Below are positions 1,728 to 58,545 of a stretch of 64,000 bases of DNA, in pieces. The stretch is taken from positions 51,956,001 through 52,020,000 of the forward strand of contig OX597816.1 of assembly GCA_951406725.2 (NCBI GenBank). The letters run 5' to 3'. The notes beneath the pieces are model-generated. The model was not told where the DNA came from and searched no databases. It saw only the letters and a list, made by a program, of their open reading frames with translations. Numbering within the stretch: position 1 is the stretch's first letter; each line of letters starts with the position of its first letter. A program made the position numbers and the translations under genes. Source of the DNA: Octopus vulgaris. Its lineage: Eukaryota.

Positions 1728-1779
1728 TGAGAACGTACGTTTCAAGATTAGTCATAACAACACTTCTATCATCAGCTCA
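1728..1779 (-). ncRNA. Minimal type-I hammerhead ribozyme (545-bp family)
   Basis: Minus strand: UGAG-CUGAUGA-stem II-GAAA-CGUACG-UU-CUCA; canonical core, palindromic stem III. Confidence 0.75.
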
Positions 1780-2128
1780 GAAACTCCTTGGTTTGGATTT
1801 GGAAACACTGAAAGTAAGAACATACCCTTTCGAAGATCCGCTCGTAACTAACAGTGCCAACAAACCCAAATAAGCAAGCGAAGAATTTCTGTTCTCCCCT
1901 TTCCACCAGCGTGGGTTAAAATCATCAAACACTATGCTTATTTCGGTAAAATCCGAAGCATTAATTAGAGGGAGATTAATTATAATTTCAACAATTGAGG
2001 GTAAAATTAATTAATTATTAATCAATTTCACCAAGTGTTCAGTATGCAAAGGGACCATTTAAGGCGAATTCAAATTATTACATTATATAAAAGGGCTTAG
2101 TAAAATAAAATCCAAACCAAGGAGTTTC

Positions 2129-2180
2129 TGAGCTGATGATAGAAGTGTTGTTATGACTAATCTTGAAACGTACGTTCTCA
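2129..2180 (+). ncRNA. Minimal type-I hammerhead ribozyme (545-bp family)
   Basis: TGAG CTGATGA TAGAAGTGTTGTTATGACTAATCTT GAAA CGTACG TT CTCA. Confidence 0.75.
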
Positions 2181-2672
2181 AATAACCTTAGCATTTGATT
2201 TTTTGATGTCCTTACCCCCAAACTTTTGTGAGTTGAATTAAGCAAACACTATATATGAGAGAGATTTTCTTTAAGTATTAGAAATAGCTTTAAAAAAGTT
2301 TTTTAGCTGCTATTTCTAATGAGTTCAGTATGCGGCAAAGTAATTTATTTTACTAAGCCCTTTTATATAATGTAATAATTTGAATTCGCCTTAAATGGTC
2401 CCTTTGCATACTGAACACTTGGTGAAATTGATTAATAATTAATTAATTTTACCCTCAATTGTTGAAATTATAATTAATCTCCCTCTAATTAATGCTTCGG
2501 ATTTTACCGAAATAAGCATAGTGTTTGATGATTTTAACCCACGCTGGTGGAAAGGGAGAACAGAAATTCTTCGCTTGCTTATTTGGGTTTGTTGGCACTG
2601 TTAGTTACGAGCGGATCTTCGAAAGGGTATGTTCTTACTTTCAGTGTTTCCAAATCCAAACCAAGGAGTTTC

Positions 2673-2724
2673 TGAGCTGATGATAGAAGTGTTGTTATGA
2701 CTAATCTTGAAACGTACGTTCTCA
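2673..2724 (+). ncRNA. Minimal type-I hammerhead ribozyme (545-bp family)
   Basis: Identical to 2129-2180, 544 nt downstream on the same strand. Confidence 0.75.
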
Positions 2725-4047
2725 AATAACCTTAGCATTTGATTTTTTGATGTCCTTACCCCAAACTTTTGTGAGTTGAATTAAGCAAACACTATATATG
2801 AGAGAGATTTTCTTTAAGTATTAGAAATAGCTTTAAAAAAGTTTTTTAGCTGCTATTTCTAATGAGTTCAGTATGCGGCAAAGTAATTTATTTTACTAAG
2901 CCCTTTTATATAATATATATATATATATATATATATATATATATATATATAAACAAAAATGCTAGTTCTAAAATCTCTCTAAGAGATCAACGCTGTAGTT
3001 GTACTAACAAGTAATATTCGTAACAGTAAATCGAAAGGTTTTACTTCTATTTTTAACCCCAAGAAGACATCTCCTCTAGCTGGTTGATCATGCCCAGCTG
3101 CAATATATCGCATGCAGCTGTTACATGTGTGAATTACTTTGTAACATGTGTCATGTTTTCTCGAGTTATTTTGCCTATACAATCGCGAGCGTGCGTAGGC
3201 ACCTTTTGATTCCCCTACCCTTGATTCAATAGAACATCGAAAATGTCAGAACTTGTCAAAGGTAAGGCGGCATCCGCACTCGGTTGGTATTTATTACAGC
3301 ACTGTAGATTGATTTTACGTGAAATGAATATTCTTACTCCATAGTACAATTCATCGCTCTGTCCAGAAGTCAAACTCTTGACATTGTAATCCTGAGCTCA
3401 ACATTTTTGCAATAGACTACACGACTTTGTCAGAACCTTGAAGGCAGTATTTGCCATTTTTGTTCTTATTTAGCGACTAGCCAGTGGCGGTCGAACAAAT
3501 CAATGAGAAAGCACAATCGAGAAATAATCACCCAATCTGTTTCAGGCCAGATGTTCTTCAGTTTATCAGATTATATTCCCTTAATAAATAGAATGCAAAA
3601 TTTATTTATCTACTCCTATCCTCATCCCACATGCATACGCCATGAAACATTAGAGCAGTCAATAATGGAGTGGACGTAGAATTAGGAGATGTTAGTACCG
3701 AAAATATAACACAAGAGAATTGTCTTGGTTAATAAAGACTTCTTTTCCACTGATACACAATTTGGAGGCGAAACCTATTTTAGTTACTCGATAATGTTAT
3801 TCAGCATCAACACAAGCCCAATATTGGATATTGCAAAACATATTGATCCGGTAGACAGCGTCCTTTTTTAAGAATATAATTGTTACAACCTTCATAGTAT
3901 GAATAATTATGAACAAATATTTACACTCCATCAAGTCGATGAATTGGGGGAGTCATTAGAGTGTTAGACAACGCTGTGGCGCATCAAGTGTTCTCAGAAA
4001 CCGGGGTCAAAAATAAATTTATCGATAAAATTGTTTTACACTTCTTT

Positions 4048-4295
4048 CCGCAGGCATATGGCGTAGTGATTAAGAGCGCCGGCTACTAACCCCAAGATTC
4101 CGGGTTCGATTCCAAGCAGTGACCTGAACAATAATAATAATAATAATAACTTCGAAAAATGCCTTAAGAATGAGAACGCAGGTTTGAAATTTCCCCAAGA
4201 CACCTGAAGAAGGCTGGAGGGTATATCAGCCGAAACTTTGTGTTAACAACAAACAAAATGAGGACAAATATCCGTCGAATGTAAATAATTTAAAT
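4048..4295 (+). mobile_element. tRNA-derived SINE with a hammerhead-containing tail
   Basis: A box TGGCGTAGTG, B box GGTTCGATTCC, (AAT)n, then an HHR motif; 19-bp TSD AATTGTTTTACACT(T/C)CTTT at 4029-4047 and 4296-4314. Confidence 0.85.
4199..4244 (+). ncRNA. Minimal hammerhead motif in SINE tail
   Basis: GACAC CTGAAGA A GGCTG-loop-CAGCC GAAA CTTT GTGTT (the 18.6 kb copy reads GAAACGTT). Confidence 0.65.
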
Positions 4296-57068: not shown

Positions 57069-57129
57069 GCTCTATTGAACCTTTCAGTCCAGAATCCTAG
57101 AAACTTTCGAGTAAGATATATTTTAGTCT

Positions 57130-57355
57130 TTATCTTTATCTTTCATTTGTTTCAGCCTATGGACTGCGGCCAAGCTGGGGCATCGCCTTGAATGGCTCAG
57201 TCAAGCGAATCGACCCAAGTGTATATTTTTCTAAGTCGTATATAAGTGTATATTTTTCTATCAAGCTTTGCTCAACTGTGAAGTTACAGTGATCTACAGC
57301 TATCAAGTAGTGTGTTGAAAACAAATACAAAGACACAAGACACACACATACAAAA
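57130..57355 (-). mobile_element. Diverged SINE family A 3' part
   Basis: TTGTTTCAG..GACTGCGGCCAAGCTGGGGCATCGCC. Confidence 0.6.
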
Positions 57356-57454
57356 ATGCACACTCCCACCCATACATGTACCCATATATATATATATATA
57401 TATATATATATATATATATATATATATATATATATATATATATACACGAGGGGA

Positions 57455-57827
57455 ATTAAAGCATTCGAGCTTTGGTGTCGGAGAAGACTTTTGCAGATTC
57501 CATGGACAGCGAGGCTTACCAATGGAGAAGTTCGTAAGCAGATAAGGCCGAAAATGTCGCTAGAAGCTGGGATCACCAAGCGTAGATTGGCATATTTCGA
57601 TCATATTATGCGGAGAGAATCCCTGAAGAAGGACATCATGCTCGGAATGGTGAGTGGCAAGAGAGGAAGAGGCCGACCAAGAACCCGCTGGCTTGACACC
57701 ATCTGGAGTGATACCGGAATGGTCATGGCCAGTCTGAAGGAAGCGGCCCATGATAGAACTGGCTGGAAGACACTGATCCAAAGAGTGACCGAGAGTCGAC
57801 TTCGACTGAGCGGTTAGAGAGAGAGAT
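57455..57827 (+). mobile_element. 5'-truncated RTE (BovB-like) LINE
   Basis: Open frame IKAFELWCRRRLLQIPWTAR..LAYFDHIMRR..IMLGMVSGKRGRGRPRTRWLD; (GA)n tail; TSD ACGAGGGGA at 57446-57454 and 57828-57836. Confidence 0.92.
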
Positions 57828-57937
57828 ACGAGGGGATGCTGAAAAGTTTCTGGCTTTCGGTAAAAGAAAATACAGTATGATCATTTAATTATTGTATAAT
57901 CCGACGTATTTCCCTCTCATATTTACACACTTATAGC
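57828..57937. mobile_element. Mariner-like terminal fragment
   Basis: TACGAGGGGATGCTGAAAAGTT resembles a mariner TIR and the reverse complement of the 50630-50654 end. Confidence 0.55.
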
Positions 57938-57979
57938 ACACACACATGTACACACACATACATATATTTATATATATAT

Positions 57980-58545
57980 TCCAGGAAAGTTAGAGATTGT
58001 GAATCCAACCAACTAAGGGATAATATCTATCCAATATACTGCTGGTAGAATACCCAATTATGAATACACAAGTGTTTTTTATTGCATTGCAAATACATTA
58101 CCGAGTGTACTACATCGGTGAGGTAAAGAGTTATTTTACCATAAATTAATAAAGCAATAAGAAAATGCAGGTGACCAATAGGTGATTCTTCAACTTTTAG
58201 ACATTGTTTTATGTCAATTTATTTATTTATTTATTTATTTATTCATTTACTAAAATGACAATTACAAGAATATACATACATGTAAAACATATGCTTTACA
58301 TATAAAATATAAAGATACTAATAGTTATTAAAATATATAACATACAGGAATAGAAATTGGGAAAATATCTGACAGCTGTTTCAGCCAAGAGGCAAAAATA
58401 CCTCATTCTACCTTTATCCCTCCAGTAAACTGAAGTAATTAGTAGATGAAATTGAGGTACTTGAATATGTCTCTAGGCTTCGTCAGAGATTTTAGAAATT
58501 ACTTATGGTTAAGTTATAAATATAAATACACACATATTTACATAC
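57980..58545 (-). mobile_element. Solo PLE pLTR-like repeat with hammerhead
   Basis: Between TA tracts; end related to 32915-33070; contains an HHR at 58362-58493. Confidence 0.65.
58362..58493 (-). ncRNA. Type-I hammerhead, canonical core, ~100 nt stem II
   Basis: Minus strand: AAAAUCU CUGACGA AGCCUAGAG..GUACCUCA..UGAGGUAU..CUCUUGGCU GAAA CAGCUG UC AGAUAUUUU. Confidence 0.8.

Follow-up and report, generated by a model that had tools for sequence, protein, structure and literature searches.

Hammerhead motifs of six repeat families in a 64-kb Octopus vulgaris window and the probable meaning of their palindromic helix III

We analysed a window of 64,000 nucleotides (nt) from Octopus vulgaris (GenBank assembly GCA_951406725.2, contig OX597816.1, positions 51,956,001 to 52,020,000 of the forward strand; "the window" denotes this whole stretch, and positions are counted from its first letter), an AT-rich and microsatellite-dense piece of animal DNA that contains hammerhead-shaped RNA motifs of six repeat families. 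These comprise two tandem retrozyme-like repeats (the 545 and 359 families), the pseudo-long terminal repeats (pLTRs) of a Penelope-like element (PLE), a solo copy with a long stem II near 58 kb, and two repeats with minimal hammerheads (the 20/36 family and a family resembling short interspersed elements, here SINE-type). The motifs are likely to be self-cleaving ribozymes of PLEs and retrozymes, with palindromes that probably reflect the pairing of each ribozyme with its own second copy and not a code operating between families. Such a code had been the original prediction, in which the palindromes could identify the families within a community of ribozyme RNAs that share PLE enzymes.

Hammerhead motifs of the six families

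A type I descriptor (core box, helix I of at least 4 base pairs (bp), stem II, palindromic helix III and H17) with at most one core change finds nine sites in four families: three in the 545 family, three in the 359 family, two in the pLTRs and a single one at 58.4 kb. When the window is shuffled 60 times, block by block and keeping dinucleotides, the mean is 0.15 and the maximum 3, and with an intact core there are six sites against 0.03 in the shuffles; since the descriptor was composed after the motifs had been seen, this null is somewhat generous. The core boxes of the 545, 58 kb, pLTR and 359 motifs pass with a 3-8 pair, three helices and H17, the pLTRs having U3-A8 as that pair and one inserted A, and the 359 family a single change, U4C. 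Two more families are recognisable beyond these four, so that six is a fair count. All five palindromes that had been named were found where they had been reported, within type I hammerhead-shaped motifs and in a GAAA context, but they serve six families, because the SINE-type and 20/36 families both carry ACGU. The U·U opposition at the base of stem II (10.1/11.1) is present in both the 545 and the 359 families, as had been noticed earlier.

Repeat comparison places the 545 family, a 544-nt retrozyme-like repeat, at 1435..2906 on both strands, an inverted part (1435-2108, minus strand) being joined head-to-head to a forward part (2108-2906, plus strand), with both sense 3' ends joining (TA)n. 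Its non-coding units are arranged in tandem, head-to-tail, with one type I hammerhead each, and the descriptor identifies three copies: copy 1 at 1728..1779 (minus strand; predicted cut after U17, at 1732), copy 2 at 2129..2180 (plus; predicted cut after 2176) and copy 3 at 2673..2724 (plus; predicted cut after 2720). The palindrome ACGTACGT lies at 1733-1740, 2168-2175 and 2712-2719, and copy 1 has a CUGAUGA core, U·U at the base of stem II and helix III ACGUACGU. The 544 nt between predicted cuts (2177-2720) fold with a z score of -6.2, none of 100 shuffles being as stable.

The 359 family is represented by 2.8 head-to-tail units of 359 nt at 37817..38810 (plus strand; repeats and descriptor), non-coding and with a single type I hammerhead per unit, at 37832-37877, 38191-38236 and 38550-38595 (plus), each found by the descriptor with one core change. 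That change is the U4C of the CCGAUGA core (38198, and likewise 37839 and 38557), and it is accompanied by U·U, helix III ACCAUGGU, a GUC site (in the middle copy the cut is predicted at 38230) and the palindrome ACCATGGT at 37863, 38222 and 38581. The array joins (TA)n at its 3' end and has GAA microhomology at its 5' end; the unit between predicted cut sites folds with a z score of -5.4, and again 0 of 100 shuffles are as stable.

This was the sole family compared with public runs, contigs being aligned from four of the 24 runs listed. Between 59 and 79% of the words of its unit occur in 20 of these 24 (four organism labels, eight studies), and the head-to-tail joint is seen in all four runs aligned, one DNA run giving 1396 contigs. 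The aligned runs contain six listed variable places and two indels, none of them within 38176-38250, and in whole-unit contigs of runs X7 and X8, which bear two organism labels, the differences are all accounted for by places outside the ribozyme, so that U4C, U·U and the palindrome are traits of the family and not accidents of this array. These alignments show the putative ribozyme, palindrome included, to be conserved in other runs, with the caveats that two differences in an X16 contig could not be placed and that in a contig from X8 the stretch 38185-38249 shows seven differences that are not listed; a diverged subfamily differing in core or palindrome may exist. U4C, normally damaging, thus appears to be fixed in an abundant family. 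No RNA run was recognised among the listed runs with the unit, and that X8 is one is a guess from contigs, which carry no information on expression or on RNA ends, strand or circularity. A metagenome scan with a pattern common to the 545 and 359 cores gave 115 matches, 8 of them palindromic against about 7 expected at 1/16; we discarded these as chance, as 14 have a correct core start and none of those is palindromic or has helix I of at least 4 bp.

A single hammerhead at 58367..58490 (minus strand) was found by the descriptor with an intact CUGACGA core and a predicted cut after 58371. It has a GUC site, helix III ACAGCUGU, the palindrome ACAGCTGT at 58372-58379 and a rod-like stem II of 97 nt (z score -3.2), and it is the sole copy in the window, situated in an AT-rich piece of about 270 bp between simple repeats. 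The pLTR motifs lie in two pseudo-LTRs that are 98% identical and flank a coding region for reverse transcriptase (RT) and GIY-YIG: the 5' pLTR at 30705..31005 (minus), with a hammerhead at 30844-30884 and a predicted cut after 30849, and the 3' pLTR at 26100..26401 (minus), with a hammerhead at 26239-26279 and a predicted cut after 26244. The 5' motif has UUGACAA with the U3-A8 pair, 5-bp helices I and II, GAAAA and ACCGGU. The letters AACCGGTT given earlier as the pLTR palindrome are present at 26244 and 30849, but a parse that retains both H17 and a helix I of 5 bp takes in ACCGGU and not all eight of them; the extra A in the GAAA box makes ACCGGU the likely helix III. Taking AACCGGUU as the full helix III was rejected, since position 17 would then be a G and a base ahead of the core would be left unpaired.

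From their letters, the SINE-type and 20/36 families seem to fit the minimal-hammerhead pattern and are recognisable though damaged; no copy of either passes the descriptor, all six being damaged. The word GAAACGT occurs at 18610 (minus), 20348 (minus) and 36662 (plus). The majority letters of the SINE-type family would fit a type I hammerhead, as no single copy does. Its first copy (4050..4300, plus) has a tRNA-like head, an (AAT)n spacer and a minimal hammerhead at 4199-4244 with helix III ACUU (copy 4204). Two headless copies stand head-to-head across (TGT)n(TTA)n, one at 18480..18700 (minus; minimal hammerhead 18598-18643, ACGU with a helix I mismatch; copy 18638) and one at 18763..18922 (plus; minimal hammerhead 18814-18859, helix III ACGC; copy 18819), and a 5'-truncated copy at 56960..57067 (plus) has lost core and palindrome, reading AAGU in place of helix III. 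The head is thus present on one of four copies (4050-4130), with A- and B-box-like words discerned by eye, and neither ARAGORN nor Rfam made a call on it; it is possible that head, (AAT)n and minimal hammerhead together constitute an RNA polymerase III SINE built on a PLE end.

The two copies of the 20/36 family, 75% identical, are minimal hammerhead-like. That at 20240..20420 (minus; C3 at 20368) has an A6U core, an extra A after A9 and ACGU, and that at 36580..36767 (plus; C3 at 36642), between microsatellites, has an A6U core, ACGU and damaged stem II and helix I; helix I is short or mismatched in both. The sharing of U at core position 6 (20365, minus; 36645, plus) by copies this divergent suggests a family-wide A6U variant.

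Probable pairing with a second copy and the rival readings

In predicted monomers helix III is of 2 bp (545, 359 and 58 kb) or 1 bp (pLTR), or cannot close at all (the ACGU families), and such helices of 0 to 2 bp would be too short to hold alone. We propose that two copies within one read-through transcript would form a double hammerhead with both helix III and helix I made between the copies, a geometry in which the A15.1-U16.1 pair joins bases from different copies. The predicted energies are in line with the earlier view that the palindrome favours pairing with a second copy: for neighbouring 359 copies the cis double hammerhead is modelled at -156.4 kcal/mol against -138.6 for two monomers (17.8 better), and for neighbouring 545 copies at -156.1 against -144.2 (11.9 better), in fold models that leave out tertiary contacts. 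As the pairing partner is identical, helix III must be self-complementary, and which palindrome a lineage carries would be a matter of drift within that constraint. Cleavage would release strongly self-paired units of 544 or 359 nt, which could then be circularised and reverse-transcribed by a Neptune-type PLE protein that targets (TA)n, and the outcome would be arrays of more than one unit, inversions and microsatellite junctions.

The junctions provide circumstantial support for mobilisation of this kind, in that five of six ends, namely the two 3' ends of the 545 locus, the 3' end of the 359 array and the two ends of the PLE, are within 0-8 nt of (TA)7+, against a background of 1.6% of non-microsatellite positions within 10 nt of such a tract, and the 545 locus has a head-to-head inversion of the sort typical of PLEs. 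The observation that most copies abut microsatellites stands for the 545, 359 and PLE families; it applies more loosely to the 58 kb motif and the 36 kb copy, and fails for the 20 kb copy, which is more than 800 nt away. That the families share PLE enzymes is plausible and has already been proposed in print, but no sequence link to the PLE of the window was found.

Several results weigh against the reading of these motifs as ribozymes that pair with their own second copy. The free minimum fold lies below the double hammerhead by 4.8 kcal/mol for the 359 family and 12.6 for the 545 family, and U4C, A6U and U·U are all expected to slow cleavage. PMC7229834 and PMC7761336 report efficient monomer cleavage for the majority of invertebrate retrozyme hammerheads whose helix III has 2 bp, which makes the dimer dependence of the 545, 359 and 58 kb motifs uncertain, and eight of nine Xenopus retrozyme dimers went uncleaved in vitro, one being cleaved (bioRxiv 10.64898/2026.07.22.740005). 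Homodimers are the best partner for the four families with long palindromes, which a code also predicts. The Rfam hammerhead models have no match in the window at the gathering score, and five loci searched singly (the 20/36 loci not being among them) returned no hammerhead at E<=10; among the best 150 of 237 rows of a scan of the window at E<=10, nearly all are microsatellites matching miRNA models. Microsatellite adjacency had to be abandoned as a marker of hammerhead families, since 13 of 66 ends of non-hammerhead repeats are also within 10 nt of (TA)7+, and none of the other families, the SINE-type, 20/36 and 58 kb ones included, has sequence in common with the window's PLE beyond a 14-nt chance word.

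It is far from probable that the palindromes are pairing codes, selected so that co-expressed, PLE-sharing ribozyme RNAs dimerise with their own kind. Four families do have four long palindromes, which pair with themselves at -8.3 to -11.2 kcal/mol and across families at -3.5 kcal/mol or weaker; in free cofolding the best partner is self in four of six families, and the 359 palindrome is kept in other runs. However, self-only pairing and a best self-cofold are also predicted by self-complementarity together with divergence, and, since a constant outer AC...GU leaves 16 possible 8-mers, three independent draws have an 82% chance of being all different. One palindrome per family was not what we found, since the SINE-type and 20/36 families have ACGU in common, and ACGU pairs four out of four with the 545 palindrome; for both ACGU families a hetero-partner outscores self. 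Across all families helix III makes at least two core-adjacent pairs in 30 of 30 cross combinations, and an in-register helix I of at least three pairs forms in only two of the 30. The cleaved strand and the 3' strand of helix I come from the other copy, so that an active hetero-dimer needs both helices matched, and the palindrome is thus hardly required as a barrier to cross-family dimers, helix I being predicted to be incompatible already in 28 of 30 cross pairs. Family separation would accordingly be independent of the palindrome and a passive result of divergence, mostly in helix I. Tandem copies, moreover, can pair in cis with no search among other RNAs, and in the Fig. S3 text of PMC4209133 we counted 8 of 11 multi-family genomes in which the same helix III recurs across families. 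We found no literature proposing or testing a palindrome code, subscription papers being outside the scope of the search and a swap test in Lunse et al. 2017 possibly having been missed, and, among 15 entries listed, nothing relevant on heterodimers or on the specificity of double hammerheads. A more elaborate proposal, which we likewise regard as improbable, is a community of octopod retrozymes and PLEs dependent on one (TA)n-targeting Neptune enzyme, in which the ribozyme of the abundant 359 family is an obligate dimer whose core has been deliberately weakened by U4C and U·U so that only tandem copies cleave, and in which selection acting jointly on helices I and III has left co-expressed families unable to pair with one another, preventing cutting or blocking in trans.

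A more serious competitor, which we consider a real possibility without favouring it, is monomeric cleavage of the 545, 359 and 58 kb motifs by way of a helix III of 2 bp capped with a tetraloop; the palindrome would then be ancestral or an optional aid. The 2-bp helix III does close in the predicted monomer fold, the 58 kb hammerhead is single in the window, and PMC7229834 gives monomer cleavage rates of about 0.8 per min for a coral retrozyme and 0.1 per min for a mussel one. Against this, all three loops are exact palindromes, an outcome of 1 in 16 for each if they were free to vary, the double fold is predicted to be far more stable, and in an axolotl family that combines U·U with a helix III of 2 bp, dimers cleave far better than monomers (PMC7229834). 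We think it unlikely that most of the motifs are inactive remnants, with the 359 and 545 families spreading as DNA satellites by unequal exchange and U4C and U·U being fixed decay. Damage to all six copies of the ACGU families, the two frameshifts of the PLE, the lowering of in vitro activity by U4C (PMC3088659) and the eight inactive Xenopus dimers noted above would all be expected of such decay, but the arrays are short, their units are 99% identical, they end in (TA)n at junctions that show microhomology, and both an inversion and a flanking duplication occur among them; all listed 359 variation is outside the ribozyme, and the units fold far better than shuffles. Pairing of each ribozyme with its own second copy remains the reading that we prefer.

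The Penelope-like element and the surroundings of the insertions

The PLE, probably of Neptune type, occupies 26100..31012 on the minus strand, between (TA)n tracts, as recognised from its RT, GIY-YIG and pLTRs. All of its coding parts are on that strand: an upstream open reading frame of 306 amino acids (29761-30681), an RT in two frames (28069-29217 and 27308-28201) whose relatives have PF00078 and PF01541, and a CxxC linker with GIY-YIG (26908-27318; GIY-YIG at E 1.3e-4). The copy is broken by two frameshifts. The best named match of the RT is 58% identical, and the closest named relatives are labelled as octopod proteins. In the linker CxxC is readable, with the first Cys at a frameshift, and all five relatives inspected have the full CX2-5CxxC; judged by its letters, the Neptune label is consistent with the linker and with the (TA)n target. 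The 306-amino-acid frame has a 57-bp internal repeat and no Pfam match, and a C-rich stretch precedes the RT. Elsewhere, at 383-612, there is an inverted remnant that ends in (TA)n and shows 75% similarity to the pLTR sequence beyond (downstream of) the hammerhead; it would represent a related PLE family without the ribozyme part.

The 359 array is flanked exactly by a direct duplication of about 940 bp, 97.8% identical over 958 columns, whose first copy (36862..37819, plus) starts in (TA)n and whose second copy (38811..39750, plus) ends exactly where the first copy meets the array, at the GAA microhomology. Candidate origins are duplication of a long target, template jumping onto nearby DNA and faulty assembly; the target duplications reported for Penelope are of 8-10 bp, far shorter than that seen here (PMC3846280). 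Beside the 545 insertion the host DNA is present as an inverted duplication (923-1123 and 1221-1421, 99%) across a (TA)23 tract, accompanied by a 59-bp tandem restart (1162-1279), an arrangement suggestive of fold-back priming at (TA)n or of an artefact in the assembly. The 5' boundaries at 37817 (359 array), 2108 (forward part of 545) and 58514 (58 kb piece) all fall about 20-30 nt upstream of core position 3, and the start of helix I is perhaps a preferred reverse-transcription stop, a pattern noticed post hoc.

Short reading frames at 57450-57817 and 58986-59336 (both plus) resemble, by eye, fragments of other transposons, and gave no Pfam match at E<=0.001; we take the former to resemble the 3' end of a long interspersed element.

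Relation to known hammerhead systems

Much of this is already in print, namely palindromic helices III, many families per genome, U·U in stem II and PLE-driven retrozymes. PMC4209133 describes palindromic helix III, the dimer model, U3-A8 and several families per genome; PMC7229834 treats retrozymes, counts 16 families of hammerheads in a single coral, shows U·U in an axolotl family and names PLEs as likely drivers; PMC3088659 finds stem III to be palindromic across a range of ribozymes and reports a viable viroid with natural U4C, as well as A6C and a GAAA insertion; and bioRxiv 10.64898/2026.07.22.740005 describes retrozymes as non-autonomous PLE derivatives. In the hammerhead literature examined, of which PMC3088659 reports A6C, we did not find the A6U of the 20/36 family. 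Nor did we find literature on octopus retrozymes, subscription papers being outside the scope of the search; a squid genome paper (PMC6962438) only counts 235 Rfam hammerheads. The window therefore adds cephalopod examples to the known PLE hammerheads and retrozymes, among them variants that escape the Rfam models. The 359 family, as a conserved retrozyme with natural U4C and U·U, is a handy test case, and the resemblance of its junction to that of the neighbouring Neptune-type element bears on which enzyme moves retrozymes. A pairing code, if true, would amount to a novel way for selfish RNAs to recognise their own kind, but the evidence here is not in its favour.

The closest systems to the 545 and 359 families are the metazoan non-LTR retrozymes (Cervera & de la Pena 2020, PMC7229834), including mussel repeats of 350-390 bp, which are likewise tandem, non-coding, self-paired units with one type I hammerhead each, a likeness drawn here from DNA and predicted folds. 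Both families resemble axolotl HHR_Amex2 (PMC7229834) in particular, with which they have in common a 2-bp helix III, its tetraloop and the basal U·U of stem II. Unlike those retrozymes, the 359 core has U4C and the flanking duplication of about 940 bp replaces a short target-site duplication; the 544-nt unit exceeds the 150-450 bp of PMC7229834 and is within the 51-972 bp of bioRxiv 10.64898/2026.07.22.740005.

The minimal hammerheads of PLEs (Cervera & de la Pena 2014, PMC4209133; Lunse et al. 2017, via PMC6765202 and PMC7761336) are also among the closest known systems, likewise occurring in both pLTRs, with a U3-A8 core and several families per genome. The pLTR motif of the window differs from them in that no base is added after A9 and that its GAAA box contains an additional A, and the SINE-type family fits the published minimal consensus CUGANGAH-G...C-GAAAN-NUH with ACGU. 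Neptune-clade PLEs (Craig et al. 2021, bioRxiv 10.1101/2021.04.23.441226) likewise have an RT, a Cys linker, a C-terminal GIY-YIG and pLTRs, together with a microsatellite target and inverted 5'-truncated copies; unlike them, the window's copy is frameshifted and only the CxxC half of its linker is readable, so that its place in the clade is tentative. Finally, the hammerhead SINE-like repeats of schistosomes (PMC6765202) have a small-RNA-like head followed by a hammerhead, the same order as at 4050-4300, but in the octopus family the head is confined to one copy in four and the hammerhead is of the minimal PLE type.

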